The notes under the pieces are model-generated. The model did not search any database. It was given only the letters and a program-made list of their open reading frames with translations, and had not been told where the DNA came from. The translations under genes and the position numbers were made by a program. This document shows positions 17,787 through 56,878 of a DNA stretch of 64,000 nucleotides, in pieces; within the stretch, counting starts at the first letter, position 1, and the number at the start of each line of letters is the position of its first letter. Source of the stretch: Ilumatobacteraceae bacterium (lineage in GTDB: Bacteria > Actinomycetota > Acidimicrobiia > Acidimicrobiales > Ilumatobacteraceae); the NCBI GenBank assembly GCA_035557475.1, contig DATMDV010000370.1:2336-66335 (forward strand), written 5' to 3'.

Positions 17787-19709
17787 GTGGAATGGGGACG
17801 TTCCTTGGGGGGACGCGGGGCATCTTGGGTCAGCGGCCGTGGTCCGCGTTCGCCACTCCTCGTGGCGTCGCGGCTACGAATCGGTGTGCCCCTGACACTG
17901 CTCGACGCGATGCTGGTGGCCGGGTCGTACACGTCGCTGCTCGCCGTGCGGTTCGACGGCCAGATCCCCTCCGCCTACTCGCATCGCATGTTCCAATGCC
18001 TGCCGCTGGTGGTCGGCGTGCACATCACGTCGAACCTCGTGTGGGGTCTGTACGGACAGATCTGGCGTCACGCCAGCATCGCCGAAGCGCGGCGCGTCGT
18101 CCTGGCCGGCATCACCGCCGGAGTGATCATCTACCCCTTTGATCCACTCGAGTCGTTCCCGGTACCTCGTTCGGTCGCCCTGTTCGCCGCCGTCGTCGCC
18201 ACGATGTTCATGGGACTCGTGCGGTTCCAGGCGCGGTTGTTCAGCTGGCGTCGCAAGGTCGACCGCACAGGGACGCCCGTCGCCGTCGTCGGCGCAGGTG
18301 TCCCCGGCGCTTCGATCATCCGCGAGATGGCCCGCTCGCCGATGAGCCGCCGGTATCCGGTCGTGGTCGTCGACGACGATGTGCGCACCCACGGCCGGTC
18401 GCTGCTCGGCGTCCCAGTGGTCGGGAGCGTCGCCAACCTCGAACGGGCCATCGAGCGCTTCCGGGCGCGCGAGGTCCTCGTCGCCGATCCGGGCGCCGAT
18501 CAGATACTGCTGCGCACCGCGATGGAGGCCGCCGAGCGGGCCAAGGTGCCGGTCAAGGTGTTCCCGCCGGTCCACGAGCTCCTCACCGCCGCGCCGTCGG
18601 TGCGCGACGTCCGCGAACTTCAGATCGACGACCTGCTCGGGCGCCAACAGGTGGTCACCGACCGCGAGAGCATCCGCGCCACGATCGCCTCGCGCCGGGT
18701 CCTGATCACGGGAGCTGGTGGATCGATCGGATCTGAGATCGCCGCCCAGGTCGCAACGTACGAGCCGTCCCTCCTCGTGTTGCTCGATCACGACGAGACC
18801 CACCTCCACGAGCTGTCGGCGCGAATGCCACCCACGGTCAATCAGCAGCTCGTGCTCACCGACATCCGCGACCGCGTCCGGCTGCAGTCGGTGTTCGAGC
18901 GCGTGCGGCCCGAGGTCGTGTTCCACGCTGCCGCCCACAAGCACGTCCCCCTGCTCGAGGCCGATCCGGTCGAGGCGATCAAGACCAACGTGTGGGGAAC
19001 GGAGAACGTCCTCCAATCGGCCGCCTCGGTGTTCGTGGAGCGGCTCGTGTTCATCTCGTCCGACAAGGCGGTGCGCCCGAGCAACGTGCTCGGGCGATCG
19101 AAGCACATCGGCGAGCAGCTCGTCGTCTCTCGCGCGCCAGCGGGCGCCCGGTGGTGCTCGGTGCGCTTCGGCAACGTGATCGGCAGCCGCGGCAGCGTCA
19201 TCCCGACGTTTGCCGCTCAGATCGCGGGTGGTGGCCCGGTCACCGTCACCGATCCCCACATGACCAGGTACTTCATGAGCGTCTACGAGGCGGTGACGCT
19301 CGCCCTCCAAGCAGCCGTCTTCTCCTCCGGCGGCGAGATCTTCATGCTGAACGTCGGCGAACAGGTCAACGTTCTCGAGCTCGCCGAACGCATGATCCGG
19401 CTGTCCGGGCGAGTTGTCGGTGACGAGGTCCCGATCGAGTTCGTCGGAGCACGCCCAGGTGAGAAACTCTCCGAGCAGTTGCAGGACATCGACGAGGAGG
19501 CACATCCCACGAATCACTCGGCCATCACCCGCCTGGTTCCGATCGCCCTCGGCGGAGATCGCATGGACCGCACGGTCGAACAGCTCGGCCTGCTGGCCGC
19601 GCGCGGCCGAGATGACGAGATCCGCAGGCTGCTCGACGAGCTCACGATCACCGACGTCGAAACCGACGCCGCAAGGGCGCCCATGGTCCCGTTCGGGGGC
19701 ACGTCCTAG
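17787..19709 (+). CDS. membrane-bound nucleotide-sugar 4,6-dehydratase (CapD/PglF/WbpM family)
   Basis: N-terminal TM helices, then VAVVGAGVPG and ITGAGGSIGSEI Rossmann motifs, plus FISSDKAVRPSNVLGRSK (catalytic region). Start uncertain. Confidence 0.85.
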   Translation: MEWGRSLGGRGASWVSGRGPRSPLLVASRLRIGVPLTLLDAMLVAGSYTSLLAVRFDGQIPSAYSHRMFQCLPLVVGVHITSNLVWGLYGQIWRHASIAEARRVVLAGITAGVIIYPFDPLESFPVPRSVALFAAVVATMFMGLVRFQARLFSWRRKVDRTGTPVAVVGAGVPGASIIREMARSPMSRRYPVVVVDDDVRTHGRSLLGVPVVGSVANLERAIERFRAREVLVADPGADQILLRTAMEAAERAKVPVKVFPPVHELLTAAPSVRDVRELQIDDLLGRQQVVTDRESIRATIASRRVLITGAGGSIGSEIAAQVATYEPSLLVLLDHDETHLHELSARMPPTVNQQLVLTDIRDRVRLQSVFERVRPEVVFHAAAHKHVPLLEADPVEAIKTNVWGTENVLQSAASVFVERLVFISSDKAVRPSNVLGRSKHIGEQLVVSRAPAGARWCSVRFGNVIGSRGSVIPTFAAQIAGGGPVTVTDPHMTRYFMSVYEAVTLALQAAVFSSGGEIFMLNVGEQVNVLELAERMIRLSGRVVGDEVPIEFVGARPGEKLSEQLQDIDEEAHPTNHSAITRLVPIALGGDRMDRTVEQLGLLAARGRDDEIRRLLDELTITDVETDAARAPMVPFGGTS

Positions 19710-21491
19710 ATGGAGCCGCTGGCGTATGCGCAGATCGTGCGCCGGTGGTGGTGGCTCATCGCCGGGCTCGTGGTCGCCGCGCTGGGCATCGTCTACGTCA
19801 CCACACCCGCGCGCTTCGTCGACCGCTACGAGGCAACGCACGTGCTCCTCGTCGAGGACACGGGCGATTCGAGCAGGAGCACCGCGGCCAACCCCGAGAT
19901 CGTCGCGCTGTGGGCCGAGGAGACCGAGGTACTCGAACGGGCGGCGGCCGCGATCGGCCCAGGGGTCGATCCCGAGCGGCTCGGTCGCGACATCGAGGTC
20001 AGGACGAACCGCAACGTCGGCACTGTCTTGATCACCGCGACCGATCTCAATCCCCAGCGCGCCGCGCTGAAGGCGAACACGGTTGCTGACGAGACGGTCG
20101 CGTTTCTCGCCGAGCGCGAGGCCACTCGCCAGCTCGAGGCCGAGGAGGATCTCGCGGCCCAGGAGGCGTCGCTGCGCGAGCGCGTCTCGACCCTGGACGC
20201 GGCAATCGCCAACAACCCACCCGACGTCGAGACGTTGACCGCCGAGCGCGACGCACTCATCCGCCAGTTGGGCTCTGTGCTCGAGGCCCAGGACGCGCAG
20301 GCCTCGACCGTCGTCTACACCACGATCGACGAGGCCGACCGCGGCACGAAGCAGGACCGCCTGCCGGGGACGAGGAGCCGCGCCGAGCGGATGGCGCTCG
20401 CCGCCGCTGTCGCGCTCGTCCTCGGATTCGGCCTCGCCCTCACGCTCGACCGCTCCGACACCCGCGTCCGGACGAGGCGGGGCGCCGAGGAGCACTTCGG
20501 CCTGCCCGTCATCGCCGAGGTCGTCAAGTTCCCGTTCTGGTCACGCTGGCGCAAGTTGGTCGTCGTCCGCGAGCCCGACACCGCCGTCGCCGAGTCGTAC
20601 CGGACGTTGCGCAGCGCGTTGATGCTCCTCGAGCCCGACGTCGACCCGCAGTGGAGCGGGGGCGAGCCGCTACCCGGCCCTGGCGCGGATTCCGCGCCTC
20701 GCGGCGAGGTGATCATGATCACGTCCGCCGGCAGCGGCGACGGCAAGTCGACGACGGTGTCGAACCTCGCGGCCGCCTACGGCGAGAGCGGATACTCGGT
20801 GCTGATGCTCAGCTTCGACCTGCAACGGATCCGTGCACGAAGGCGGGCGCGAACCACCCGCAACCCGGGGGTCACCGAGTTTCTCGCCGCCGCGCCTCCG
20901 ATCCCGCTCGCCTCACTCGTCATGGGCACCAACGTGCGCGGCGTCAGCATGGTGGGCATCGGCAGCGCCGCCCGCCCGCCCGGCGGCCAGCTCGCCGATC
21001 AGCAGCGGCTGATCGACGAGGCCCGGGCGTTGGCCGACGTCGTCCTCATCGACACCGCGCCGTTGCTCGCCTCGAGCATCAACCGCGAATTGGCGACGAT
21101 GGTCGACGGAGTGGTCGCGCTGTGCCGTGTCGGTCGCACGACCACGTCCCAGGCCGAACGCTGCGGCGACCTCCTCGCCCAGATCCGTGCCCCGGCGATC
21201 GGTGTGGTGATGACGGGTGTCACGGCGCCGGAGGGCTCGGCGTACTTCGCCTATTGGACCCTGCGCCGCGACAAGCGATCGAAAATGACCACGCTCGAGG
21301 CCGATGGTGCCGCGCCGCCACCATCGGCGCAAGCGCCGTCGATCGGGTCGACCGTGCGGTCGGACAGCGCACCGCGTCGGCCGCGCCCGCCGACCCGGCC
21401 GAGCGCGGTGGGCACCTTCGATGCACCGACAGCCGACAATGGTCATGTCCGCAGGGCGCGGTCGCGCGACGTGCCGGTCGACGAGCGGTGA
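19710..21491 (+). CDS. polysaccharide co-polymerase (Wzz-like) fused to a BY-kinase-type P-loop ATPase
   Basis: N-terminal TM segment, a long coiled-coil periplasmic-type region and a second TM segment (MALAAAVALVLGFGLAL). Then Walker A ITSAGSGDGKST, Walker A' VVLIDTAPLL and Walker B DGVVALCRVG. The C-terminal tail has only two Tyr (AYFAYW). Confidence 0.8.
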   Translation: MEPLAYAQIVRRWWWLIAGLVVAALGIVYVTTPARFVDRYEATHVLLVEDTGDSSRSTAANPEIVALWAEETEVLERAAAAIGPGVDPERLGRDIEVRTNRNVGTVLITATDLNPQRAALKANTVADETVAFLAEREATRQLEAEEDLAAQEASLRERVSTLDAAIANNPPDVETLTAERDALIRQLGSVLEAQDAQASTVVYTTIDEADRGTKQDRLPGTRSRAERMALAAAVALVLGFGLALTLDRSDTRVRTRRGAEEHFGLPVIAEVVKFPFWSRWRKLVVVREPDTAVAESYRTLRSALMLLEPDVDPQWSGGEPLPGPGADSAPRGEVIMITSAGSGDGKSTTVSNLAAAYGESGYSVLMLSFDLQRIRARRRARTTRNPGVTEFLAAAPPIPLASLVMGTNVRGVSMVGIGSAARPPGGQLADQQRLIDEARALADVVLIDTAPLLASSINRELATMVDGVVALCRVGRTTTSQAERCGDLLAQIRAPAIGVVMTGVTAPEGSAYFAYWTLRRDKRSKMTTLEADGAAPPPSAQAPSIGSTVRSDSAPRRPRPPTRPSAVGTFDAPTADNGHVRRARSRDVPVDER

Positions 21492-21540
21492 ACAACGGCA
21501 TGACGGCCGAGATGAAGGTAGCGATGAAGGTGGGGATCCG

Positions 21541-22716
21541 GTGACATTGCTGGCGATGCTCGGGGGAGAACCAGTGTTCCCTGCAGGGTTGAAGTTCGCG
21601 CGGCCGGCGGCGCCGCCGCTCGAACGTGTCGTCGCCCGCCTCGAGCCGTCGTACGACCTGGGGATCCTGACCAACGGGCCCCTCGTCCGCGAGCTCGAGC
21701 TCCAGGTGGCGAACCGACTCGGGGTCGATCACGTCGTCGCCGTCTCGTCGTGCACCGCCGGGTTGATGCTCACGCTGCAGGCGCTCGTGCCACCCGGGCG
21801 ACCGGTGCTGATGCCGAGCTTCACGTTCGCCGCGACCGCCCACGCCGCCGCGTGGGTCGGTGGCATCCCCCGATTCGCAGAGTGTGGCGACGACGACTTC
21901 CTGCTCGACGTCGACGACGCGGCCCACCGGATCGACGGGTCGGCAGCGATCCTCGCCACCCACGTGTTCGGCGCGCCGTGCCATCCCGAGCGCGTCGAGG
22001 AGCTCGGCAGCGCGCACGGCATCCCGGTGGTCTTCGACGCCGCCCACGCGCTCGGCGCCCTCCGTAACGGGCGGCCGGTCGGCGGGTTCGGGATCGCCGA
22101 GGTGTTCAGCCTCAGCCCGACCAAGCTCGTCGTCAGCGGCGAAGGTGGGCTCGTCACGACCAACGACGAAGCGCTCGCGGCGCGGATCCGCATCGGACGC
22201 GACTACGGCAACCCGGGAACGTACGACACAAAGTTCGCGGGGCTCAACGCGCGACTGTCGGAGATGCATGCGGCGCTGGCGCTCGAGTCGCTGGAGATCC
22301 TCGACGACCATCTGGCGCGACGTGCACACCTCGTGGCGCGGTATCGGACCCTGCTGGCGGCAGTGCCCGGGATCATCCCGCAGCAGCTGACGCCCGGCGA
22401 CGCGTCGACGCACAAGGACTTCACCATCGTCGTCGACGAGACCGTGTTCGGTGTCGAACGCGACCTCCTCGCCCTCGCCCTGCGCGCCGAGGGCATCGAC
22501 ACGCGTTGCTACTTCTCGCCACCCGTCCATCGTCATGAGGCCTACCGCGGATTGCTCGCCCCAGAGCTGCCCCGCACAGACCAGTTGGCGTCCCGCGTCA
22601 TCAGCCTGCCGCTGTGGCGCGACCTCGACGAGGCCGCCGTCGAGGCGGTCGCCGACACGATCGCCCGCGTCCATGAGGACGCCGACGCGGTCGGCCAGCT
22701 CCCGAGGTCGGCGTGA
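21541..22716 (+). CDS. DegT/DnrJ/EryC1-family PLP-dependent sugar aminotransferase
   Basis: VTLLAMLGGEPVFP..., AVSSCTAGLMLTL, FDAAHALGA, FSLSPTKLVVSGEGG (PLP Lys). GTG 21541 or ATG 21556. Confidence 0.85.
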   Translation: MTLLAMLGGEPVFPAGLKFARPAAPPLERVVARLEPSYDLGILTNGPLVRELELQVANRLGVDHVVAVSSCTAGLMLTLQALVPPGRPVLMPSFTFAATAHAAAWVGGIPRFAECGDDDFLLDVDDAAHRIDGSAAILATHVFGAPCHPERVEELGSAHGIPVVFDAAHALGALRNGRPVGGFGIAEVFSLSPTKLVVSGEGGLVTTNDEALAARIRIGRDYGNPGTYDTKFAGLNARLSEMHAALALESLEILDDHLARRAHLVARYRTLLAAVPGIIPQQLTPGDASTHKDFTIVVDETVFGVERDLLALALRAEGIDTRCYFSPPVHRHEAYRGLLAPELPRTDQLASRVISLPLWRDLDEAAVEAVADTIARVHEDADAVGQLPRSA

Positions 22717-23660
22717 GAGCGCTCGTCACCGGCGGCGCCGGCTTCATCGGCTCGCATCTCGTCACCGCGCTCGTCGCCGAGGGCACGCAGGTCGTCGTCC
22801 TCGACGATCTGTCGACCGGTGACAGCGCCAACGTGGCGCCCGAAGCCGACCTCGTCGAGGGCGATATCACCGATGCGTCGAGGGTCGCCTCGGCCGTGCG
22901 CGGCTGCGACGTCGTCTTCCACCTCGCCGCGCGTGGCTCGGTCCAACGCTCGGTCGAGCAACCGCTGGCGACCGACAAGTCGAACGTCAGCGGCACGCTC
23001 ACGGTGCTGTGCGCGGCGCACGACGCAGGCGCCGGCCGGGTCGTGCTGTCGTCGTCGTCGTCGGTCTACGGCGGCGCACGGGAACGCCCGACACGCGAGG
23101 ACCAACCGCTGCAGCCGCGCTCGCCGTATGCCGTCAGCAAGCTCGCCGGCGAGCACTACGCGCGGGTCTTCACCGAGCTGCACGGCTTGGAGACGGTCGC
23201 GCTCCGGTACTTCAACGTGTTCGGTCCCCGCCAGCGCTCCGACAGCCAGTACGCCGCCGTGGTCCCCCGCTTCATCGACGCCTTGCGCCGCGGTCTCCCG
23301 GTCGAGATCCACGGCGACGGTGAGCAGAGCCGCGACTTCACGTACGTGACCGATGCAGTACAAGCGAACCTGCGGGCCGCGGTCGCGCCGGCCGAGTCGT
23401 GCGTCGGTCGCGCCTACAACATCGCCAGGGGCGAGTCCCACACCGTGCTCGAGCTCCTCGCGGCGCTCGCCGATCTGCTCGGAGTCGAAGCCATCCCCCG
23501 TCACGTTCCCAGTCGGCCCGGCGATGTCCGCCACTCGCAGGCGTCGATCGAGGCCGCCGGCGACGACCTCGGCTTCCGTCCCCGGGGCACGCTCCGCGAC
23601 GGCCTCGCCGCGACCGTGGCCTGGTGGAGTGAAGCCGTCCCAGCGGGGTCGTGGACGTGA
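22713..23660 (+). CDS. NAD-dependent nucleotide-sugar epimerase/dehydratase (SDR, UDP-HexNAc 4-epimerase-like)
   Basis: MRALVTGGAGFIGSHL, YAVSKLAGE (YxxxK). 4-nt GTGA overlap with the aminotransferase gene. Confidence 0.85.
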   Translation: MRALVTGGAGFIGSHLVTALVAEGTQVVVLDDLSTGDSANVAPEADLVEGDITDASRVASAVRGCDVVFHLAARGSVQRSVEQPLATDKSNVSGTLTVLCAAHDAGAGRVVLSSSSSVYGGARERPTREDQPLQPRSPYAVSKLAGEHYARVFTELHGLETVALRYFNVFGPRQRSDSQYAAVVPRFIDALRRGLPVEIHGDGEQSRDFTYVTDAVQANLRAAVAPAESCVGRAYNIARGESHTVLELLAALADLLGVEAIPRHVPSRPGDVRHSQASIEAAGDDLGFRPRGTLRDGLAATVAWWSEAVPAGSWT

Positions 23661-24961
23661 CCGACCTCGCCGACGCACTGGCGGCCCGCCTCGATCAGCG
23701 TCAGGCGCGCGTCGTGGTGATGGGGCAGGGCCACGTCGGGTTGCCCGTGGCGATGCGGTCGAGCGCGGTCGGGTTCGCCGTCGTCGGTTTCGACACCGAC
23801 GCCGAGCGGGTGGCGGCGCTCCGTGCCGGAACCTCGTACATCACCGATGTGGTCGACGACGAACTCGCCGGCGCGCTCGAGCAGGGCTACTGGCCGACCA
23901 ACGACCCGGCCGATCTGGAGGCGTTCGACGTCGCCGTGATCACGGTGCCCACTCCGCTGCGCGAGGGCATGCCCGACCTCTCCCACGTCGAGCAGGCGGC
24001 CGGACTCGTCGCCGACGCGTTGCGTCCCGGCGCCCTCGTGGTGCTCGAGTCGACGACGTACCCCGGCACGACCAACGAGCTCGTGCGGCCGATCCTCGAG
24101 CGCACGGGATTGCTCGTCGGTCGCGATTTCTTCCTCGGCTACTCGCCCGAGCGGATCGACCCCGGCAATCCGAGCTGGGGCCTGGTCAACACGCCCAAGG
24201 TCGTGTCGGGCGTCGACGAGCCGTCGCTGCGGTGCGTCGAGGTGTTCTACGGGGCACTCGTCGACAAGGTGGTGCCCGTCGGCACGCCGGCCGAGGCCGA
24301 GCTGGTCAAGCTCCTCGAGAACACGTTCCGCCACGTCAACATCGCCCTGGTGAACGAGCTGGCGATGTACGCATCGGAGCTCGGCATCGACATCTGGAGC
24401 GCGATCGACGCGGCGTCCACGAAGCCGTTCGGCTATCTCCGGTTCACGCCCGGTCCGGGTGTCGGGGGCCACTGCCTCCCGATCGATCCGTCGTTCCTGT
24501 CGTGGCGTGTGAAGCGGAGCCTCGGTCGCACGTTCCGGTTCGTCGAGCTGGCCAACGATGTCAACGAACACATGCCCGACTACGTCGTCACGCGGATCAT
24601 GACGCTGCTGAACGGCGATGGGTTGGCGGCGCGGAACAGTCGGATCCTCGTCCTCGGGCTGAGCTACAAGGCGGGGACGTCGGACTGGCGCGAGTCGCCG
24701 TCGTTGGCGGTCGTCGAGCGGTTGATCGCACTCGGCGCCAACGTGCGGGCGTGGGAGCCGCACCTCCCGCCCGTCGGGCTTCCGCAGCTGCCGGTCCCGG
24801 TCGTGCCCTGCACCGTCGACGAGATCGCCGCCGCCGACCTCGTCGTCGTGCTCGTCGAACATCCCGAGCTCCCCCTCGACGACATCGCCGAGCACGCCCG
24901 GCTGGTGCTCGACACTCGCGGCTGCCTGCGCGACCGCGCGTTCCGCGGCGAACTGCTCTGA
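23651..24961 (+). CDS. UDP-N-acetyl-hexosamine (Glc/Gal/ManNAc) 6-dehydrogenase family enzyme
   Basis: VVVMGQGHVGLPVA Rossmann motif, catalytic GVGGHCLPIDP, and a C-terminal UDP-binding domain LGLSYKAGTSDWRESP. Confidence 0.85.
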   Translation: MDVTDLADALAARLDQRQARVVVMGQGHVGLPVAMRSSAVGFAVVGFDTDAERVAALRAGTSYITDVVDDELAGALEQGYWPTNDPADLEAFDVAVITVPTPLREGMPDLSHVEQAAGLVADALRPGALVVLESTTYPGTTNELVRPILERTGLLVGRDFFLGYSPERIDPGNPSWGLVNTPKVVSGVDEPSLRCVEVFYGALVDKVVPVGTPAEAELVKLLENTFRHVNIALVNELAMYASELGIDIWSAIDAASTKPFGYLRFTPGPGVGGHCLPIDPSFLSWRVKRSLGRTFRFVELANDVNEHMPDYVVTRIMTLLNGDGLAARNSRILVLGLSYKAGTSDWRESPSLAVVERLIALGANVRAWEPHLPPVGLPQLPVPVVPCTVDEIAAADLVVVLVEHPELPLDDIAEHARLVLDTRGCLRDRAFRGELL

Positions 24962-49264: not shown

Positions 49265-50244
49265 GTCGTGGCCCGGTCGTCGGCTACGAAGACGGCCGCG
49301 TCGTAGCGCAGCATCACGACGCCGGCGCGCCATCCGTCGGCGCTGGCCGTCGACGGGAGGCCGACCAGGTCCTCGAGGATCCAGCGCGGGAAGTCCGCCC
49401 CCGCCTCGCGCGACAGCGGGAATCCCCCGCCGAAGCGGGCGTTGAGCTCGATGATCGCCAGCTGGTCGGTTCGGTCGTCGACGAACACCTGGATCGTGAG
49501 CGCGCCGAACGGATCGGGCAGCGCGTCGCACACCTCCACCGCCAGCTGCTCGAGCGACGCCGAGCGAACCGTCACTGCCTTGGCCACCTCGCCGGCACGC
49601 ACCTCGAGGCGCCGTCGGGGAACGGCGCAGACGCGCGCACCAGCCCGATCGACGAGGACGTCGATCGTGTACTCAGTGCCGGCCGCAACCGTCTCGACGA
49701 CGACGTCGCCGACTCGCGCCGCGACCTCGAGCTCCGTCGTGTCGCTGACGATGGTCACCCCATGGGCGGCACTGCCGAATCGCGGCTTGACCACGAGCGG
49801 GAACGGCCATGCGTCCGGATCGTCGCGGACGCTCGCCAACGTCGTCTGGCGGACGGTTGGAAGATCGTTCGCCACGAGCCACTCGTGGGTCGCCACCTTG
49901 TCGGCCGCGATGGCGACGACGGCGGGCGCCGACACTGCCACGGTCGTCCCGACGGCAGCCAGCTCGGAGCTGGCGGCCGCCAACACCGGCAGCTCGGGAT
50001 CGATCGTCGGCACGACGAGGTCGACCTGTTGGTCGACGCACAGCTCTACCATGCGCGGGACGAACGCTCGGTCCGTGCACGCCGGCACCTCGAAGCCGGC
50101 GTCGGCGCTGTGCCGCGCGCTGGAGTACCACGACCGGTCGGTGGCGATGACCCGACCGTTGAGGTCGAGGTCGTGCAACGCCTCGCGGAAGCTCCGCAAC
50201 AGCTCGACGCGCCGCCCGGCCGACGACACCAAGACGGTGGTCAT
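49261..50244 (-). CDS. ATP-grasp domain enzyme (carboxylate-amine ligase type)
   Basis: MTTVLVSSAGRRVELLRSF, PLVVKPRFGSAAHGV, IIELNARFGGGFP. ATGA overlap with the sugar transferase gene. Confidence 0.75.
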   Translation of the reverse strand: MTTVLVSSAGRRVELLRSFREALHDLDLNGRVIATDRSWYSSARHSADAGFEVPACTDRAFVPRMVELCVDQQVDLVVPTIDPELPVLAAASSELAAVGTTVAVSAPAVVAIAADKVATHEWLVANDLPTVRQTTLASVRDDPDAWPFPLVVKPRFGSAAHGVTIVSDTTELEVAARVGDVVVETVAAGTEYTIDVLVDRAGARVCAVPRRRLEVRAGEVAKAVTVRSASLEQLAVEVCDALPDPFGALTIQVFVDDRTDQLAIIELNARFGGGFPLSREAGADFPRWILEDLVGLPSTASADGWRAGVVMLRYDAAVFVADDRATT

Positions 50245-50909
50245 TCGCGCCGGGCGGGGAGCTGGGTCATGGTTGCGTGACCTGCTCCCGAGATCCCGCT
50301 GCGCCGCACGACCACCGGGACCGTCCTGGCGAGGATCCGTGCGTCGAGGGCGAGCGAGCGGTGGTCGACGTACCACGCATCGAGCTCGAGCCGGGCGTCC
50401 CACCCGATCGCGTTGCGGCCGTTGATCTGTGCCCAGCCGGTGATGCCGGGGCGGACGGCCAGCCGCCGGCGCTGACGATCGGTGTACCGCTCGACGTAGC
50501 GGACCGGCAGCGGTCGTGGCCCCACGACGGCCATGTCGCCGCGGACGACGTTGACGAGTGAAGGGAGCTCGTCGATGCTCGTCGACCGCAGGAACCGACC
50601 GAGCGGCGTGATGCGGGCGCCGTCGTGGTCGGGGGCCGTCTCTCCCGCACGTAGCGGGCGCATCGTGCGCAGCTTGAGCAGCTCGAAGGGCTCACCATCG
50701 CGACCCGCGCGGGCGTGCCGGAACAGGACCGGACGGCCCATCTTGACCCTGATCGCGAGCGCCGCCGCAGCGAGCACCGGTGCGGCAAACGCGAGGGCGG
50801 CCAAGGCGATCACCACGTCGAGTAGGCGCCGAACCGCGCGGCTCGTTCGTCCCTCGATTCGCCCGTTCGTGCGCCCGGCCCCCGACGACTGAACCTTCCA
50901 GCCCGCCAC
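50241..50909 (-). CDS. small polyprenyl-phosphate sugar-1-phosphate transferase (PglC/WbaP-C type, bacterial sugar transferase family)
   Basis: One N-terminal hairpin helix (VVIALAALAFAAPVLAAAALAI), then GRPVLFRHARAGRDGEPFELLKLRTM, DELPSLVNVVRGDMAVVGPRP and RPGITGWAQINGRN. Confidence 0.85.
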   Translation of the reverse strand: MAGWKVQSSGAGRTNGRIEGRTSRAVRRLLDVVIALAALAFAAPVLAAAALAIRVKMGRPVLFRHARAGRDGEPFELLKLRTMRPLRAGETAPDHDGARITPLGRFLRSTSIDELPSLVNVVRGDMAVVGPRPLPVRYVERYTDRQRRRLAVRPGITGWAQINGRNAIGWDARLELDAWYVDHRSLALDARILARTVPVVVRRSGISGAGHATMTQLPARRE

Positions 50910-50957: not shown

Positions 50958-51842
50958 GTGGGCGGACTCCGATCTCGGGTCGCGCGGCGGGCTCGGCGGC
51001 TCCCCGTGCTTCGGCGTTATCCCGTGACGTACATCTCGTCGTGGCTCGACGGGTACCGGCTGCGCGGCGACTTCGACCAGGTTCGCGCGTTCGTGATGTT
51101 CGTCGGCCAACCGCGCACCGGGCACAGCATCGTCGGCGCCCTGCTCGACGCCCATCCGAACACGTTGATCGCCCACGAGCTCGATGCGCTCAAGTACGTC
51201 ACTGCCGGCTACGACCGACGACGCCTGTACGCCCTGCTCGTGCGTGCACAGCAGGAGCGGATCGCCGCCGGCCACATCTCCGCGACCGGCTACCAGTATC
51301 TCGTCGACGGTCAGTGGCAGGGACGGTACGAGCAGCTGCAGGTGATCGGCGACAAGAAGGGCGGTCAGTCGACCGCCCGTCTCGGCGCGGACATCGGCTT
51401 GCTCGACCGTCTGCGCGCGACCGTTGGCGTCGACGTGCACGTCGTCCAGGTCGTGCGCAACCCGTACGACGTCATCGCCACGATGCAGCGCCGGGCGCCG
51501 AATCGCCGGCTGCCCGACGTCGTCGACTTGTTCTTCGACCTCGCCGTCACGGTCGACGAGGTCCGCCGCCGGGTCCCCCCCGAACGGTTCCACGAGCTCC
51601 ACCACGACGCGCTGATCACCGACCCGACGGCCACGCTGAGCAAGCTGTGCACGTTCTTGAGCCTCCCCGCACCCGCCGACTACCTCGCCGCGTGCAGCGC
51701 CATCATCTTCGACACACCGCGTCGCACCCGCGGCGACGTGGCATGGACGCCGGAGCTGATCGAGTGCGTTCGCGCACGCTTGGCCGAGCACCCGTCGCTC
51801 GAGCACTACGGATACGAAGCCACGTCGGCGGAGGCGTCGTGA
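50958..51842 (+). CDS. sulfotransferase, family C, tandem copy 1
   Basis: P-loop FVMFVGQPRTGHSIVGALLDAHPN; VVQVVRNPYDVIATM. Collinear with the next gene along its whole length. Confidence 0.7.
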   Translation: MGGLRSRVARRARRLPVLRRYPVTYISSWLDGYRLRGDFDQVRAFVMFVGQPRTGHSIVGALLDAHPNTLIAHELDALKYVTAGYDRRRLYALLVRAQQERIAAGHISATGYQYLVDGQWQGRYEQLQVIGDKKGGQSTARLGADIGLLDRLRATVGVDVHVVQVVRNPYDVIATMQRRAPNRRLPDVVDLFFDLAVTVDEVRRRVPPERFHELHHDALITDPTATLSKLCTFLSLPAPADYLAACSAIIFDTPRRTRGDVAWTPELIECVRARLAEHPSLEHYGYEATSAEAS

Positions 51843-52714
51843 AGACCAAGCAGGCCCACCGACGCCGCCAGGTGGCGCGCCTCGTCAACGGGGTCCGCGT
51901 GCTCCCCGGCTTCCGCAACTACCCGATGCTCTACGTCAGCTCGGCGGTGCGGGGTCGCCAACTGCGCGCCGACTTCGCCAGCGTGCGCACGTTCTTGCTG
52001 TTCGTCGGGCATCCGCGCAGCGGCCACAGCCTGGTCGGTTCGCTGCTCGACGCTCATCCCGACGCGGTGGTGTCGCACGAGCTCGACGCGCTCAAGTACG
52101 TCGCCGCCGGCTATCGCCGATCGCAGCTGTTCACGCTCGTGCTCGAACACGCCAAGGCCAACGCCGCGGCTGGCCGGAAATCGTGGGGCTACTCGTACGC
52201 CGTGCCCTCCCAATGGCAGGGACGGTACGAGCGGCTCGAAGTGGTGGGCGACAAGCGCGGCCGGCGCACGACCGCCCGCCTTGCCGAACGACCCGAGTTG
52301 CTCGACCGGCTGGCGGCCACGGTGCAGATGCCGGTATCGGTCGTGCAGGTCGTCCGCGACCCGATCGACAACATCTCGACGATGTGGCGACGAGGGCAAC
52401 TCACGCTCGAGTACCAGATCGACGAGTACTTCTCGCTGTGCGACACGGTCGACAAGATCACCGCCGGGATGGATCCGGCGCGCTTTCACCGTGTGCGGCT
52501 CGAGGAGCTCATCGCCCATCCGCACGACCAGCTCACCGACCTGTGTCGGTTCCTCGAGATGCGAGTCGTGCCGGGATACGTCGATGCGTGCGCGTCGATC
52601 GTGTTCGAGGCGCCGCGCCGTACCCGCGACGATGCGCCGTGGACAGCGGAGCTGGTCGACGACGTGCGTCGTCGAGCCGGGCGCCACGAATGGCTGGCGC
52701 CGTACGACGCATGA
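51839..52714 (+). CDS. sulfotransferase, family C, tandem copy 2
   Basis: GTGA overlap. FLLFVGHPRSGHSLVGSLLDAHPD; VVQVVRDPIDNISTM. The track ORF was trimmed from 50780. Confidence 0.7.
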   Translation: MKTKQAHRRRQVARLVNGVRVLPGFRNYPMLYVSSAVRGRQLRADFASVRTFLLFVGHPRSGHSLVGSLLDAHPDAVVSHELDALKYVAAGYRRSQLFTLVLEHAKANAAAGRKSWGYSYAVPSQWQGRYERLEVVGDKRGRRTTARLAERPELLDRLAATVQMPVSVVQVVRDPIDNISTMWRRGQLTLEYQIDEYFSLCDTVDKITAGMDPARFHRVRLEELIAHPHDQLTDLCRFLEMRVVPGYVDACASIVFEAPRRTRDDAPWTAELVDDVRRRAGRHEWLAPYDA

Positions 52715-52727: not shown

Positions 52728-53789
52728 GTGAGGCTGAAGTCGCGGGTCAAACGGCTGCTGCGCTCCGCCGGGTTGCGCCGGCGGCGGTCGCCGTGGGTGG
52801 TGCACGAGGATCAGCCGGCTGGCCCGGACCCGCTCGACTCGTGGGCGTTGTACGCGATCGTGGTGACTTGGATGGAGGCCGACGTGATCGCGGCCACCGT
52901 CCGCAACGCCCTGACGCAGGGATGCGAGAGGGTGATCCTGGTCGACAACGACAGCCCCGACGACACCGTGGCGGCGGCCATCGCCGCTGGGGCCGAGCTG
53001 GGGACGTCGTTCTCGACCCCTCAGCTCGACGAGATGCTGAAGATCCGCCTGCTCAACGAGACGGTCGCACGGGTGTCGGACGAATCACCCCACGACCACA
53101 TCTGGTGGCTGTGGCTCGACGCCGACGAGTTCGTCCACGGTCCCGGCGGTTCGACCGTCGCCGAGATGCTGACGACCTTGGACCGTCGCTTCCGCATCGT
53201 CGGCACCCGGTACTTCAACCACTTCCCCGATCGCCGCCCCGAGCACCTCGTGGGGCTCCACCCGCTCGACTTCCAGGCGGCGTGCGAGGAACGATCGGGC
53301 GACCTCTGCGACCTCGGCCATCGCAAGCACAGCCTCCAACGCTGGGATCGCCACGGACCGCCGATCACGTCGGGGCTCGGGTTCCACGCTGCCCGCGCCG
53401 ACGTCACGCTCGTCGAGCCGACGCTCGCCACGTTCACGCACCACTTCCCCTACCGGTTGGAGGCGGCCACGCGGCAGCGGTTCGATGCGCTCTGTGGCCG
53501 TGACGGCAACGGACGGTCACGCGTCGATCCCTACGACCGCCAGGTGCGGCGCAACGCCCGCACCGACTCCGACATGTCGAAGCGTTACCGGACGCTCGAG
53601 CACGTCTACGCGCGCGAATGGGCGAGGATCGAGAACCTGCGCCGCGCCGGGAACACGCTCGGGGTCGTGCTGCGCCCGTGGTGCGACGCGGTCGACCCGG
53701 CGGATGCGCAGTTCGCGAGGTGGTACTCGCCGACCGAGCTCGAGGCCGCGATCGCCGAGTGGGCGCTCACGGGCGGCGCGCCCCCGTGA
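52728..53789 (+). CDS. GT-A fold glycosyltransferase (GT2-like)
   Basis: YAIVVTWMEADVI, VILVDNDSPDDT, WLWLDADEF (DxD). The GTG 52728 start is uncertain. Confidence 0.65.
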   Translation: MRLKSRVKRLLRSAGLRRRRSPWVVHEDQPAGPDPLDSWALYAIVVTWMEADVIAATVRNALTQGCERVILVDNDSPDDTVAAAIAAGAELGTSFSTPQLDEMLKIRLLNETVARVSDESPHDHIWWLWLDADEFVHGPGGSTVAEMLTTLDRRFRIVGTRYFNHFPDRRPEHLVGLHPLDFQAACEERSGDLCDLGHRKHSLQRWDRHGPPITSGLGFHAARADVTLVEPTLATFTHHFPYRLEAATRQRFDALCGRDGNGRSRVDPYDRQVRRNARTDSDMSKRYRTLEHVYAREWARIENLRRAGNTLGVVLRPWCDAVDPADAQFARWYSPTELEAAIAEWALTGGAPP

Positions 53790-54625
53790 CGCCGCCGCCT
53801 TCCACACCGGCCGGGTTGCTGCCGAACTTCGTCGTGATCGGAGCGATGCGCTCCGGGTCGACGTCGTTGTACAAGTACCTGCAGGCCCACCCCGACGTCT
53901 TCATGCCGCGCAAGGAGATCCACTTCTTCGACGTCAAGTGGGACCGCGGTGTGGCGTGGTACCACACTCGCTTCGAGGGATACGCCGGGCAGACGGCGAT
54001 CGGGGAGGCGACGCCGACCTATCTCGCCGATCCCGTCGCGCTCGACCGCATGGCGGGCACGATTCCAGACACGCGGCTGGTAGCCGTGTTGCGTGATCCG
54101 GTCGACCGCGCCTACTCGCACTACTGGATGGAACACGCCCGCCAACGTGATCCGCGGACGTTCGAGGCTGCCATTGCCGACGAGCTCGCAAGACGGCCGG
54201 GTGCACCCCCATCCGACTACCTCGACCGCGGTCGCTACGCGCGGCAGCTCGAGCAGGTGTGCGAGCGGTTCCCACGGCACCACCTGCACGTCGTGCTCCT
54301 CGACGACCTCCGCGACCGGCCCCACGAGACCTACGCCGCGGCGTGCCGGTTCCTCGGGATCGACGACGGGTTCGTGCCGCCTCGGATCGGCGAGCGGGTC
54401 AACCGGTTCGTGGCGTTCCGATCGATGCGGGTGCGGAACATGCGCCGCTCACTTCCGTCGACGTTGCGGATCGCGCGGATCGTCGGCCGGCTCAACGCTC
54501 GCGAGGGCGCCTACTCGCCGATGGCAGCCGAAACGCGGGCGACATTGCACCAGCATTTCGGCGCCGACAACGAGGCGCTGGCCGAGTGGCTCGGACGCGA
54601 TCTGTCGATGTGGGGTGCCCGATGA
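53786..54625 (+). CDS. sulfotransferase, family B, paralog 2 (heparan-sulfate sulfotransferase-like)
   Basis: GTGA overlap. FVVIGAMRSGSTSLYKYLQAHPDVFMPRKEIHFFD, VAVLRDPVDRAYSHYWM. Confidence 0.8.
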   Translation: MTPPPSTPAGLLPNFVVIGAMRSGSTSLYKYLQAHPDVFMPRKEIHFFDVKWDRGVAWYHTRFEGYAGQTAIGEATPTYLADPVALDRMAGTIPDTRLVAVLRDPVDRAYSHYWMEHARQRDPRTFEAAIADELARRPGAPPSDYLDRGRYARQLEQVCERFPRHHLHVVLLDDLRDRPHETYAAACRFLGIDDGFVPPRIGERVNRFVAFRSMRVRNMRRSLPSTLRIARIVGRLNAREGAYSPMAAETRATLHQHFGADNEALAEWLGRDLSMWGAR

Positions 54626-54683: not shown

Positions 54684-55592
54684 ATGGTGACACGGGTCGC
54701 CGGCGCCACCGCTCAACTCGAGGACGAGGCGATCACGATCATCCGCGAGGTCGCCGCCGAGTGCGAACGGCCGGTGCTGCTGTTCTCCGGCGGCAAGGAC
54801 TCGGTCGTGATGCTGCACCTGGCCCGCCGGGCGTTCTGGCCGGCGCGGATCCCGTTCCCGGTGATGCACGTCGACACCGGCCACAACTTCGACGAGGTCA
54901 TCGCGTTTCGTGATCGCACGGTCGATCTGTTCGACGTGAAGTTGATCGTCGCCTCGGTGCAGGACTCGATCGATCGCGGGCGCGTGCACGAGGACACCGG
55001 CCCACGTGCATCGCGCAACCCGTTGCAGACGGTGACGTTGTTGGACGCGATCACCGAGCATCGTTTCGACGCCGTGTTCGGCGGAGCGCGCCGCGACGAG
55101 GAACGGGCGCGAGCCAAGGAGCGGGTGGTGTCTCACCGCGACGAGTTCGGTCAGTGGGATCCCAAGAACCAGCGCCCCGAGCTGTGGGGGATCTACAACA
55201 CCCGACGCAATCGGGGCGAGCACGTCCGGGTCTTCCCGCTGTCGAACTGGACCGAGCTCGACGTGTGGCGGTTCATCGCCGAGCGCGACGTCGAGCTGCC
55301 GTCGCTCTACTTCGCCCATCACCGTCAGGTGTTCCGGCGCGACGGGATGCTGATGGCCACCAACCGGCATGTGCCGCGCCTCGACGGCGAGGAGCCGTTC
55401 GAGGCGCTGGTGCGGTTCCGCACGATCGGCGACGCCACCTGCACGGCCGCCGTCGAGTCGGCCGCGTTCACGGTCGACGACATTGTCGCCGAGACGGCGG
55501 TGGCCAGGGTCACCGAGCGCGGTGCGACCCGCGCCGACGACCGCATCTCGGAGGCCGGCATGGAAGACCGCAAGCGCCAGGGGTACTTCTGA
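54684..55592 (+). CDS. cysD: sulfate adenylyltransferase subunit 2
   Basis: PP-loop LLFSGGKDSVVMLHLA; HVDTGHNF; the C-terminal RKRQGYF is typical of CysD. Confidence 0.9.
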   Translation: MVTRVAGATAQLEDEAITIIREVAAECERPVLLFSGGKDSVVMLHLARRAFWPARIPFPVMHVDTGHNFDEVIAFRDRTVDLFDVKLIVASVQDSIDRGRVHEDTGPRASRNPLQTVTLLDAITEHRFDAVFGGARRDEERARAKERVVSHRDEFGQWDPKNQRPELWGIYNTRRNRGEHVRVFPLSNWTELDVWRFIAERDVELPSLYFAHHRQVFRRDGMLMATNRHVPRLDGEEPFEALVRFRTIGDATCTAAVESAAFTVDDIVAETAVARVTERGATRADDRISEAGMEDRKRQGYF

Positions 55593-56878
55593 TGCAACCC
55601 GACACGACCGCCGGCCGCCAGCGGGCGCCGTTGCGCTTCGCCACGGTCGGCAGCGTCGACGACGGCAAGTCGACGCTCATCGGACGCCTGTTGCTCGACT
55701 CGAAGTCGATCTTCGAGGACCAGCTCGAACACATCGAGGCGGTCAGCAAACGCCGCGGCAACGACTACGTCGACCTGGCCCTGCTGACCGACGGCTTGCG
55801 GGCCGAGCGCGAGCAAGGCATCACCATCGACGTCGCGTACCGGTACTTCTCGACGCCCGTCCGCAGCTTCATCATCGCCGACTGCCCCGGCCATGTGCAG
55901 TACACCCGCAACGCGATCACCGGCGCATCGACCGCCGACCTGGCGCTCGTGCTCGTCGACGCCCGCCACGGAATCGTCGAACAGACGCGACGCCACAGCC
56001 TGTTGGTCTCGCTGCTCGGCGTGCCGCACCTCGTCATCTGCGTCAACAAGATGGACCTCGTCGGTCACGATCGAGACCAGTTCGACGCGATCCGCCAGGA
56101 GTTCACCGAGTTCGCCGCCCGCCTCGACCTGCGCGACGTCACGTTCATCCCGATCTCCGCCCTCGACGGCGACAACGTCGTCGACCGCTCGGCGAACATG
56201 ACGTGGTACGAGGGCCCGACCCTGCTGCACCACCTCGAGACGGTGTACACGGCGAGCGACGAGAACCTCATCGACGTGCGCTTCCCGGTGCAGTACGTCA
56301 TCCGCCCGCAACGCGCCGATCACCACGACTACCGCGGCTACGCCGGCACGGTCGCCGCTGGCACGCTCCGACCAGGCGACGAGGTGCTCGTGCTCCCGTC
56401 CGGCTTGACGTCGCGGATCGCGCGCATCGACACCGCCGACGGCCCGGTCGACGAGGCCCGCCCGTCGATGGCCGTCACGGTGCTCCTGGCCGACGACCTC
56501 GACGTCTCACGCGGCGACATGATCTGCCGCCCGAACAACCATCCGACGCCGTCCCAGGATCTCGACGCCACGATCGCGTGGATGGACTCCGAAGCCCCGC
56601 TGGCCCTGCGGCGCGTGTACGCGCTGAAGCACACGACCCGCACGGTGCGAGCAATGATCACCGACGTCCACTACCGGCTCGACGTCCACTCCCTACATCG
56701 CGACACCGAGGCGACGGAGCTGAAGCTCAACGAGATCGGTCGGGTCACGCTGCGGGCGACGGCGCCGCTGTTCGCCGACGACTATCGCCGCAGCCGTGTG
56801 ACCGGAAGCTTCGTCCTCATCGACGAGGCGACCAACCAGACGGTCGCCGCCGGAATGCTCCGCACCGCCACCGCCTGA
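55592..56878 (+). CDS. cysN: sulfate adenylyltransferase subunit 1 (GTPase); no fused APS-kinase domain
   Basis: The ATG overlaps the cysD TGA by 1 nt. G1 GSVDDGKSTLIGRLL, G3 DCPGH, G4 NKMDL. At 428 aa it ends after the beta-barrel domains. Confidence 0.9.
   Translation: MQPDTTAGRQRAPLRFATVGSVDDGKSTLIGRLLLDSKSIFEDQLEHIEAVSKRRGNDYVDLALLTDGLRAEREQGITIDVAYRYFSTPVRSFIIADCPGHVQYTRNAITGASTADLALVLVDARHGIVEQTRRHSLLVSLLGVPHLVICVNKMDLVGHDRDQFDAIRQEFTEFAARLDLRDVTFIPISALDGDNVVDRSANMTWYEGPTLLHHLETVYTASDENLIDVRFPVQYVIRPQRADHHDYRGYAGTVAAGTLRPGDEVLVLPSGLTSRIARIDTADGPVDEARPSMAVTVLLADDLDVSRGDMICRPNNHPTPSQDLDATIAWMDSEAPLALRRVYALKHTTRTVRAMITDVHYRLDVHSLHRDTEATELKLNEIGRVTLRATAPLFADDYRRSRVTGSFVLIDEATNQTVAAGMLRTATA

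Follow-up and report, generated by a model that had tools for sequence, protein, structure and literature searches.

What is made by a gene cluster that carries eight sulfotransferases (STs) within 39 kb? The question is raised by a 64-kb stretch of DNA (hereafter the window; all positions are given within it, followed where relevant by the strand) from an uncultured Ilumatobacteraceae bacterium, a monoderm soil organism of the Acidimicrobiia (Actinomycetota). At 17787-56878 lies a locus of about 39 kb whose 35 genes are all related to glycan synthesis. A first-pass annotation had read it as a locus for a heavily sulfated exopolysaccharide (EPS) with its own sulfate-activation genes. The parts of this interpretation that can be tested on sequence are borne out, with three corrections: the window holds no adenosine 5'-phosphosulfate (APS) kinase, no Wzy or Wzx can be demonstrated, and the locus is conserved elsewhere. 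We consider it probable that the 35 genes form one pathway, based on undecaprenyl phosphate and exported by an ATP-binding cassette (ABC) transporter, which makes an acidic cell-surface heteropolysaccharide of amino sugars and hexosaminuronic acids that receives many sulfations in the cytoplasm.

Since the window has a GC content of about 70%, its raw list of open reading frames (ORFs) is dominated by shadow ORFs. Frame and strand were chosen by third-position GC (GC3) and the rule that GC1 exceeds GC2, and each candidate was then compared with Pfam and NCBIfam. The resulting gene positions match the 35 contiguous genes, without unrelated insertions, of the first-pass annotation. They fall into at least 11 transcription units on alternating strands; 4-nt start/stop overlaps occur at wzt/GT4c, ST5/GNAT, ATP-grasp/GT4e, PglC/ATP-grasp and GT2/ST8 (the genes are described below). 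Several of the window proteins are identical to the GenBank entries HWM21866-HWM21888 of an Ilumatobacteraceae metagenome-assembled genome (MAG), where the names given by PGAP include "sulfotransferase" and "G8 domain-containing protein". A metagenome contig of soil type from JGI (sample 3300018422) also carries the cysD product. Scans with Rfam and for tRNAs gave no regulatory RNA near the locus.

The identity of the eight putative sulfotransferases is the central point. Judged by whole-protein scores against the Pfam gathering cutoffs (27 bits for Sulfotransfer_3, PF13469; 22 bits for Sulfotransfer_1, PF00685), all eight lie above the cutoff for one or both families, at 49.0-134.2 bits. Each translation also carries the two motifs that bind 3'-phosphoadenosine 5'-phosphosulfate (PAPS): a 5'-phosphosulfate-binding motif (5'-PSB, e.g. 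GRSGTT or PKCGRTW) and a 3'-phosphate-binding motif (3'-PB, RDGRDVxxS or RDPxDxxxS). These segments align with their counterparts in the protein-tyrosine sulfotransferase TPST1 and the heparan-sulfate 3-O-sulfotransferase (3-OST) 3-OST-3A1, and in 21 aligned ST5 orthologues both are invariant (G25-T31 and R156-S164). Family scores and motifs place all eight firmly within the PAPS-sulfotransferase superfamily, as had been proposed. The outcome that was named beforehand as speaking against the proposal, an assignment by profile models to P-loop families other than sulfotransferases, did not occur in any of the eight.

Pairwise BLAST comparisons divide the eight into four groups: ST1, ST3 and ST5 (clade A, 42-50% identity), ST6 and ST7 (clade B, 49%), ST4 and ST8 (clade C, 39%) and ST2 alone (clade D). 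Even within clade A, ST1 shares 42-43% with ST3 and ST5, and these two share 49%. The eight genes are thus four diverged clades, not recent copies. Clade A consists of ST1 (32026-33018, -; TPST/NoeE-like, Sulfotransfer_3 123 bits, motifs GAGRSGTS and IRDGRDVALS), ST3 (38002-38964, -; Sulfotransfer_3 131.7 bits, HWM21871.1 "sulfotransferase" in GenBank) and ST5 (45117-46127, -; Sulfotransfer_3 134.2 bits, TPST1 in the PDB at E 2e-24). Its closest solved relatives are the protein-tyrosine sulfotransferases TPST1/2 (E 2e-24) and the CurM sulfotransferase; a carbohydrate-acting relative exists at the sequence level in NoeE, the Nod-factor fucose sulfotransferase, to whose model ST3 scores 55.5 bits, far under the 500-bit equivalog cutoff. 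The CurM sulfotransferase is also the nearest structure for clade B, which comprises ST6 (50958-51842, +; Sulfotransfer_3 50.8 bits, CurM sulfotransferase at E 9e-5) and ST7 (51839-52714, +; Sulfotransfer_3 49.0 bits, HWM21884.1).

Clade C resembles the enzymes of animal heparan sulfate, both the 3-OSTs and the N-sulfotransferase domain of the N-deacetylase/N-sulfotransferases (NDST), with E-values from 1e-22 to 1e-12. ST4 (40911-41765, +; Sulfotransfer_3 68.9 and Sulfotransfer_1 59.8 bits) matches 3-OST-3A1 at E 1.4e-22 and the NDST domain at E 2.9e-18, and ST8 (53786-54625, +; Sulfotransfer_3 56.3 and Sulfotransfer_1 43.8 bits) matches PDB entry 3rnl at E 1e-28 and 3-OST-3A1 at E 1.6e-21. 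In ST8 the segment KEIHFFD aligns with AEPHFFD of 3-OST-3A1, and the 5'-PSB and an RDPVxRAxS motif are kept; the E-x-H-F-F segment of the 3-OSTs carries the catalytic glutamate. Finally, ST2 (33015-33905, -; Sulfotransfer_1 86.9 bits, motifs PKCGRTW and VRDPRDVIVS) is of the type of the cytosolic SULTs and StaL, and its PDB relatives are SOT16/18, SULT1 and the glycopeptide sulfotransferases TEG12/StaL. ST2 lies at the end of a 639-aa ORF (33015-34934, -) that might have been taken for a sulfotransferase with two domains. Only the last 296 aa of this ORF are genuine, the N-terminal 345 aa being a low-complexity antisense shadow of the gene hyd2 (34020-34916) on the + strand, so that the limits first given for ST2 hold.

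Is the set a chance assemblage? When gene neighbourhoods were looked up and one genome of each GTDB species was scanned, the same gene order was recovered in independent MAGs (L002; L003, identical to L006; L004; L005 together with L033, which are one Jiangellaceae MAG; L022, from the Ilumatobacteraceae; and L025, from the Acidimicrobiales). The shared order runs ST8-GT2-ST7-ST6 / PglC-ATP-grasp-GT4 / CE4 / GT8-like-ST5-GNAT-beta-helix / ST4 and continues ACP-ligase / ST3 / CE4 / ... / ST2-ST1 / GT4-Wzt-Wzm / GT4-GT4-membrane protein / dehydrogenase-epimerase. At the amino-acid level these genes are 54-78% identical to those of the window, the STs among them 54-76%, and each of the eight STs has positional orthologues. 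The search for syntenic loci that had been suggested for this DNA has therefore found them in several Actinomycetota MAGs and, as both the order and all eight STs are conserved in independent MAGs, the sulfotransferase and glycan genes appear to be maintained as one unit. Eight family-validated sulfotransferases of four clades, within 39 kb and in an order kept elsewhere, cannot be a chance pattern.

More distant Actinomycetota have smaller versions of the toolkit with two STs (L011, L018), and L085 is a reduced variant with about three in the same region. ST5 itself has thousands of relatives, the closest of them all from MAGs of Acidimicrobiia or other Actinomycetota. A different architecture is seen in an uncultured Solirubrobacterales MAG (L043:2301-13930, CAVURM010000005.1), where six to seven ST5-like genes stand in tandem within 20 kb, along with one GT4 glycosyltransferase and one O-methyltransferase, inside a purine operon (from a purQ-like GATase to purL-purF-purN-purH). 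Within 10 kb on either side of that array none of the exporter, priming-enzyme or CE4 genes of our window was detected. Similar arrays occur in L038, L046, L047, L053, L055, L058, L063 and L073, and one 663-aa protein of these tandem arrays has two Sulfotransfer_3 domains.

Sulfotransferases need activated sulfate, and the last operon of the locus ends with genes that bear on its supply. CysD, the small subunit of sulfate adenylyltransferase (54684-55592, +; TIGR02039 445.7 bits, cutoff 396.6), and CysN, its GTPase subunit (55592-56878, +; TIGR02034 565 bits, cutoff 336), are both genuine. The cysN start lies at the cysD stop, cysD follows ST8 on the same strand after 58 nt, and a scan for promoters and terminators, otherwise uninformative, gave no terminator-like site between ST8 and cysD; the pair shares its operon with ST6-ST7-GT2-ST8. 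The 428-aa CysN aligns with the 632-position CysNC model over positions 21-433 alone and lacks the APS-kinase domain. No gene for a separate APS kinase (cysC) was found in the 64-kb window by tblastn, for which we used an E. coli CysC sequence, or by a P-loop motif search, and among the flanking genes, all searched against Pfam, there was neither a kinase nor a PAP phosphatase nor a sulfate transporter. The CysC probe is a valid one, as it detects cysC in three other Actinomycetota MAG loci in which an APS kinase gene adjoins STs, free-standing in two (L017:153-593, L029:12997-13551) and fused to cysN in the third (L057:19510-20868). The statement that the locus has "its own CysDN" is thus correct as to the two genes and incomplete as to their product: with a CysN that has no APS-kinase domain and with no cysC in the window, the locus supplies APS and not PAPS. 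Since all eight STs keep the 3'-phosphate motif, a kinase encoded elsewhere is required.

How would the product leave the cell? Wzm, the ABC-2 permease of a polysaccharide exporter (28887-29726, +; PF01061 66.3 bits), scores 47.9 bits against the galactan-export Wzm model, under its cutoff. The adjoining Wzt ATPase (29710-30900, +; PF00005 69.3 bits) reaches 161-194 bits with the TagH and galactan-Wzt models, again under cutoff, and also matches NodI models; it is extended at the C-terminus by about 140 aa that match no Pfam family. An ABC-2 permease next to an ABC ATPase within a glycan locus marks the system as ABC-transporter-dependent. None of the 35 gene products matched a flippase family (MOP or Polysacc_synt) and, as no Wzx is present, Wzm/Wzt is the export route. 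A polysaccharide co-polymerase (PCP) fused to a P-loop ATPase of the bacterial tyrosine kinase (BY-kinase) type (19710-21491, +) has two transmembrane segments, a Walker A motif and CbiA/AAA_31 matches; its scores to TIGR03018 (68.8 bits) and TIGR01007 (65.6 bits) are both under cutoff.

A further polytopic membrane protein of 465 aa (24969-26366, -) has at least about seven hydrophobic segments and more than 1500 homologues, mostly from Acidimicrobiales. It had been called Wzy-like, a label that no family model backs: Pfam gave no match at E<=10, nor did a profile search of PDB sequences give any. Its AlphaFold2 (AF2) model (pLDDT 82) is matched by Foldseek to the cores of AftB, ArnT and STT3, weakly (E 0.06-0.2, TM 0.4-0.47), and not to WaaL or Wzy. 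The protein may stand for a family, so far unclassified, of enzymes that polymerise or ligate polysaccharides or are of the GT-C type. A Campylobacter-like N-glycosylation pathway with a PglB-type oligosaccharyltransferase was considered for it and set aside, given its length of 465 aa, its lack of a soluble C-terminal domain and the weakness of its STT3/AglB matches.

The precursor enzymes give some indication of the sugars. At the left end is a membrane-anchored UDP-N-acetylhexosamine (UDP-HexNAc) 4,6-dehydratase of the CapD/PglF type (17787-19709, +; Polysacc_synt_2 327.8 bits), which among the NCBIfam models comes nearest to PseB and FnlA, under cutoff in both cases. It is joined by a DegT-family sugar 4-aminotransferase (21541-22716, +, with its start codon uncertain within 21304-21556; PF01041 294.7 bits), which is DesI-like at 304 bits and PseC-like at 203 bits. 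Next come an epimerase of the short-chain dehydrogenase/reductase (SDR) type (22713-23660, +; PF01370 229.8 bits), nearest to the UDP-GlcNAcA 4-epimerase TviC (NF011728 193 bits, under cutoff), and a nucleotide-sugar 6-dehydrogenase of the UDP-HexNAc dehydrogenase type (23651-24961, +; TIGR03026 368 bits, cutoff 189.8). The latter has three UDPG_MGDP_dh domains, and its closest equivalogs are UDP-ManNAc dehydrogenase, TviB and UDP-GlcNAc dehydrogenases. This set of four enzymes fits the amino-sugar and uronic-acid composition that the first-pass annotation had predicted.

Chain assembly is represented by a small polyprenyl-phosphate sugar-phosphate transferase of the PglC type, a priming enzyme (50241-50909, -; Bac_transf 196.5 bits) that corresponds to the catalytic domain of EPS_sugtrans (240.8 bits), and by a series of glycosyltransferases (GTs). 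Five of these belong to family GT4: GT4a (26360-27499, -; Glyco_trans_1_4 135 and Glyco_transf_4 68 bits), GT4b (27580-28722, -; Glyco_trans_1_4 115 bits), GT4c (30897-32150, +; Glycos_transf_1 74.7 bits), which begins with GTG in a 4-nt overlap with the end of wzt, GT4d (35848-37011, +; Glyco_trans_1_4 91 and Glyco_trans_4_4 73.5 bits) and GT4e (48059-49264, -; Glycos_transf_1 108 bits). Another is GT2-like (52728-53789, +; Glyco_tranf_2_4 38.6 bits, cutoff 27.5). The ORF at 46124-47146 (-) has no Pfam or NCBIfam match, the Pfam GT8 family included, and represents a lineage-restricted family with 91 homologues in a set of 5.8 billion proteins, in which D96-x-D98 is invariant. Its AF2 model (pLDDT 94.4) is matched by Foldseek to glycogenin (E 3e-11) and LARGE1 (E 2.5e-10) with probability 1.0 and TM 0.4-0.6. 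On the strength of this confident model and of the invariant DxD, we count it as the eighth sugar transferase, a GT-A enzyme that is GT8-like in its predicted structure and does not match Pfam GT8 in sequence; the earlier guess of a GT8-like protein was in this respect a good one.

The remaining genes encode tailoring and processing enzymes. Two are CE4-type polysaccharide deacetylases: CE4a (36912-37979, +; PF01522 26.3 bits, cutoff 23.1), with an HSFSH motif, an uncertain start and no signal peptide, and the cytoplasmic CE4b (47201-48037, +; PF01522 72.2 bits), with TFDDG and HTDTH motifs and 47 bits, under cutoff, to the N-terminal domain of PgaB. An Eis-like N-acetyltransferase (GNAT) of the Acetyltransf_9 type (44125-45120, -; PF13527 49.8 bits) and a PylC-like ATP-grasp ligase (49261-50244, -; PylC-like_N 77.7 and ATP-grasp_3 62.4 bits; NF009405 305 bits, under cutoff), a candidate for amide formation, are also encoded. 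An AMP-forming acyl ligase (38978-40492, -; AMP-binding 237.7 bits) is accompanied by an acyl carrier protein (ACP; 40489-40746, -; PP-binding 42.6 bits) and scores 212 bits to ligase_PEP_1 (TIGR03098, cutoff 592). Hyd2 (34020-34916, +; TIGR03101 61.8 bits, cutoff 203) and Hyd1 (34892-35851, +; TIGR03100 47.8 bits, cutoff 168; Abhydrolase_6) are alpha/beta-fold proteins distantly related to hydrolases 2 and 1 of the XrtA systems. In the orthologues of L002, L022, L025 and L033, the nucleophile elbow of Hyd1 keeps a cysteine (GxCFG) and the corresponding position of Hyd2 an arginine (GTRFG/S), for which reason Hyd2 is probably no serine hydrolase. An exosortase-type system was considered in view of these models and rejected: the TIGR03098, TIGR03100 and TIGR03101 scores are under cutoff, there is no exosortase in the window and the host is monoderm. 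The last member of the set is a membrane-anchored, extracytoplasmic protein with a G8 domain and a right-handed beta-helix (41811-43952, -; CEMIP_beta-hel 34.6 and Beta_helix 34.3 bits). Its N-terminus, as read from the translation, has a hydrophobic stretch, below the threshold of our transmembrane script, followed by a Thr/Pro-rich linker; its sole PDB relative is the cell-surface hyaluronidase TMEM2 (E 5e-8), and it is a candidate glycanase, lyase or epimerase.

From gene functions assigned by homology, a succession of steps and a product can be inferred, and the following pathway may be proposed. The CapD/PglF dehydratase, the DegT aminotransferase and the GNAT would make a 2-acetamido-4-(acetyl)amino-2,4,6-trideoxyhexose nucleotide for priming, probably a 4-amino-4,6-dideoxy-HexNAc of the bacillosamine or AAT type, and the dehydrogenase with the TviC-like epimerase would provide the nucleotide of a HexNAc-uronic acid. 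The PglC-type transferase would prime undecaprenyl phosphate at the cytoplasmic face, and the five GT4, one GT2 and one GT8-like enzymes would extend the chain. Still in the cytoplasm, the two CE4 deacetylases without signal peptides may expose amines, the ATP-grasp ligase and the acyl ligase/ACP/Hyd1/Hyd2 cassette may add amide or acyl substituents, and the eight soluble PAPS-dependent STs would each act on a different position, ST4 and ST8 perhaps on O-3 or on the freed amines. CysDN would boost the conversion of sulfate to APS, to be completed to PAPS by an APS kinase from elsewhere. The finished chain would leave via Wzm/Wzt, to become a free EPS, a capsule or a polymer linked to the wall, after which the PCP/BY-kinase and the GT-C-like membrane protein could determine chain length and/or attachment, and the TMEM2-like G8/beta-helix protein could trim or remodel the polymer outside. 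The placing of sulfation, N-deacetylation and amide or acyl decoration before export rests on the enzymes concerned, which are soluble and have no export signals, and on the cytoplasmic location of PAPS. It also suits an ABC-transporter pathway, where the whole chain is completed inside the cell.

The numbers suggest how dense the sulfation could be: with eight glycosyl-transfer steps and eight STs of four clades, up to about one sulfate per sugar. The description of the product as glycosaminoglycan-like has in fact gained support, from the homology of ST4 and ST8 to heparan-sulfate 3-O- and N-sulfotransferases and from TMEM2 as the PDB relative of the G8 protein. One might speculate further that the cytoplasmic N-deacetylases, paired with NDST/3-OST-like STs, allow N-sulfation. 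In its boldest form the idea would be that a widespread group of uncultured Acidimicrobiia in soil makes a true bacterial counterpart of heparan sulfate or heparin, a hexosamine/hexosaminuronic-acid chain with nearly one sulfate per sugar and N-sulfation by ST4 and ST8 on amines freed by the CE4 enzymes. Such a lineage would provide an independent set of soluble, readily expressed enzymes for sulfation patterns like those of glycosaminoglycans, and a possible source of the sulfated material of this type found in environmental biofilms; in this full form we think the idea rather unlikely.

Several observations weigh against the proposed pathway, or at least against its details. The solved relatives nearest to clade A are protein-tyrosine sulfotransferases, and those nearest to clade D act on small molecules and glycopeptides. 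The sugar identities are approximate, because most of the nucleotide-sugar enzymes score under their equivalog cutoffs. The locus has yielded no Wzx, LCP or OPX-type component and, with a membrane protein that Pfam, PDB and Foldseek do not place, the late steps are guesswork. The supply of PAPS is assumed, since the window holds no APS kinase. Moreover, the linkage of cysDN is seen only in the window and in its close relative L084; in L002, L003 and L085 it is absent and other genes come after ST8. The organism itself is uncultured, and the best 80 genome matches are all MAGs, with no cultured carrier among them.

Could the polysaccharide instead be sulfated lightly or variably, several of the STs being alternative, conditional or redundant, so that "heavily sulfated" is an overstatement? 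The number of STs does vary among orthologous loci (about three in L085, two in L011 and L018), ST6/ST7 and ST3/ST5 are paralogue pairs of 49% identity each, and in the synechan system the deletion of xssE, one of two STs, scarcely altered the EPS (PMC8205485). Against this, all eight have positional orthologues of 54-76% identity in other MAGs and intact PAPS motifs, their four separate clades argue for separate acceptors, and the counts of glycosyl and sulfuryl transfer steps are equal, eight to eight. Light sulfation is for us an unlikely reading. We regard it as very unlikely that the locus is two or more juxtaposed glycan systems, for example a module from CapD to Wzm/Wzt and another from PglC to ST8, each with few STs. 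The alternation of at least 11 transcription units would permit such a division, as would the right-hand module's different neighbours in L085 and the re-assorted gene subsets of the distant relatives L007, L011, L012 and L018. The 35 genes, however, hold only one priming transferase, one ABC-2 exporter and one PCP. Furthermore, the two halves are contiguous in L002 (where ST3, CE4a and Hyd1 follow the right module), are bridged by L022 and co-occur in the Jiangellaceae MAG (L005 and L033).

A further alternative is that some or all of the STs act on something other than a polysaccharide: on tyrosines of a protein or peptide, on small molecules or glycopeptides, or on an acylated lipo-oligosaccharide resembling a Nod factor. 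Among the PDB relatives, TPST1/2 (E 2e-24) point to tyrosines, and the cytosolic SULTs, TEG12 and StaL to small molecules or glycopeptides. The Nod-factor analogy draws on the NodI matches of Wzt, the NoeE match of clade A and the acyl ligase/ACP cassette, and it can be extended to a series in which CE4 is NodB-like, the ACP NodF-like, an ST NodH-like, CysDN NodPQ-like and the ABC-2 exporter NodIJ-like; in rhizobia NodB, NodF, NodH, NodPQ and NodIJ perform analogous steps. Yet the ST genes are interleaved and translationally coupled with those of GTs (GT8-like then ST5; ST7-GT2-ST8), no precursor peptide, non-ribosomal peptide or polyketide synthase, NodC or NodA homologue was found in the locus, and a PCP/BY-kinase with seven GTs indicates a polymer. 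Moreover, sulfotransferases proven to act on carbohydrates, NodH and KpsS among them, belong to Sulfotransfer_3 (PMC11625862). Altogether we hold non-polysaccharide acceptors to be highly improbable.

Converging on cysN, and ending 13 nt past its stop, is the gene of a 1902-aa protein (56892-62600, -) with DUF7379 (alpha/beta-hydrolase-like), LCAT-like, CHAT protease and TPR-S regions; it appears to serve in conflict or signalling and to have no relation to the polysaccharide locus. It is followed by an ArsR/HTH_20 regulator (62659-63273, -), and the same pair is found on the JGI contig L001. On the left, 1475-8213 is a phosphate-scavenging neighbourhood with a 1266-aa fusion of phosphodiesterase, metallophosphatase and 5'-nucleotidase and a PhoX alkaline phosphatase; a GGDEF diguanylate cyclase (5521-6546, -) is encoded 11 kb from the locus, and a tRNA-Arg(CCG) lies at 5408-5481. 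Immediately 5' of the locus, flanked by genes for a CBS-domain protein and an alpha/beta hydrolase, ORF 14378-16015 (+) has no Pfam match and shows coding-type GC3 only in its C-terminal ~270 aa (~15200-16015).

Is such a system new? A 2024 review counts sulfated polysaccharides in only a handful of bacterial genera (PMC11625862), a 2020 paper on Pontiella states that glycosaminoglycan-acting sulfotransferases were not known in prokaryotes (PMC7356697), and in the literature that we searched synechan of Synechocystis sp. PCC 6803 is the only genetically dissected sulfated-polysaccharide cluster. The eight glycosyltransferases and two sulfotransferases of its xss cluster agree with a composition of eight sugars and two sulfates, and according to its authors such ST genes had not been reported in other bacterial EPS clusters (PMC8205485). 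The window locus resembles xss in combining a priming transferase, about eight GTs, a PCP and STs of PF00685/PF13469 in one EPS locus, with sulfation presumed to be cytoplasmic and to precede export. The differences are considerable: two STs in xss, eight of four clades here; Wzx/Wzy export there, Wzm/Wzt with no Wzx and no recognisable Wzy here; neutral sugars (Rha, Man, Gal, Glc) there, enzymes indicative of amino-sugar and hexosaminuronic-acid precursors here. The cysDN pair, the CE4 enzymes, the ATP-grasp ligase and the acyl-ligase cassette are not found in xss, whereas no STAND or two-component regulator of the XssQRS type is among our 35 genes, and the hosts are a cyanobacterium and a monoderm actinobacterium, respectively.

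With the heparan-sulfate system of animals (NDST, 3-OST) the locus shares the homology of ST4 and ST8 (E 1e-22 to 1e-12), including the 5'-PSB, E-x-HFFD and 3'-PB segments, the pairing of N-deacetylases with STs and enzymes for hexosamine and uronic-acid precursors. In NDST, however, the deacetylase is a fused domain and not a separate CE4 protein, the animal enzymes are type-II membrane proteins of the Golgi whereas ST4 and ST8 are soluble and cytoplasmic, and the backbone is made by EXT-type enzymes instead of GT4, GT2 and GT8-like ones; a homologue of the C5-epimerase was not identified in the window locus. The rhizobial systems (NodH/NoeE with NodPQ, and LpsS/KpsS) likewise have carbohydrate STs of the Sulfotransfer_3 type with dedicated extra sulfate-activation genes, and a CE4 deacetylase, an ACP and an ABC-2 exporter within the same pathway logic. 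They differ in having one ST per product, against eight, and an APS-kinase domain in NodQ that CysN of the window lacks, and they yield either a short lipo-chitooligosaccharide or just one sulfated residue in LPS or KPS.

Two further systems invite comparison. The wps-1 cluster of Actinoplanes missouriensis (2026) is predicted to make a sulfated EPS with two STs, verification pending, and the paper takes sulfated polysaccharides of actinomycetes for a possibility not yet verified (PMC13390465). By its description it is an actinomycete EPS cluster with, like ours, a heparan-sulfate-type ST domain, but it has Wzx/Wzy, a GH26 enzyme, a methyltransferase, a kinase and no cysDN, and its host belongs to the Actinomycetes, not to the Acidimicrobiia. 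The EPS loci of the XrtA/PEP-CTERM (EpsH1) systems share the combination of acyl-CoA ligase, ACP, hydrolase 1 and hydrolase 2, and TIGR03098, TIGR03100, TIGR03101 and the PCP kinase model TIGR03018 are the best or near-best NCBIfam matches in the window, all far under their equivalog cutoffs. In contrast to those loci there is no exosortase or PEP-CTERM protein here, the host is monoderm, and Hyd1 and Hyd2 have cysteine and arginine at their nucleophile positions. On sulfotransferases of Ilumatobacter or Acidimicrobiia, or on sulfated actinobacterial wall glycopolymers, the literature searched contained nothing relevant. Where the first-pass annotation spoke of an undescribed system, it is right in that no description was found, and is to be qualified in that several MAGs share the locus and GenBank already carries annotations for its genes. 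The kind of system, an EPS locus with PAPS sulfotransferases, is known, and this variant of it appears undescribed in that literature. What distinguishes it is the set of eight STs of four clades, two of them of the heparan-sulfate type, together with ABC export, the attached cysDN and a host in the Acidimicrobiia.

If the proposed pathway is true, its eight STs would be soluble bacterial enzymes, presumably differing in regiospecificity, for the chemoenzymatic synthesis of heparin-like compounds. The ligase/ACP/two-hydrolase cassette, so far linked to exosortase A, would turn out to be a portable module for polysaccharide tailoring. For the sulfated glycosaminoglycan-like polymers reported from environmental biofilms there would be candidate producers and candidate genes, and the dense glycan sulfation predicted here would be extended to the Actinomycetota, a phylum without a chemically demonstrated case.

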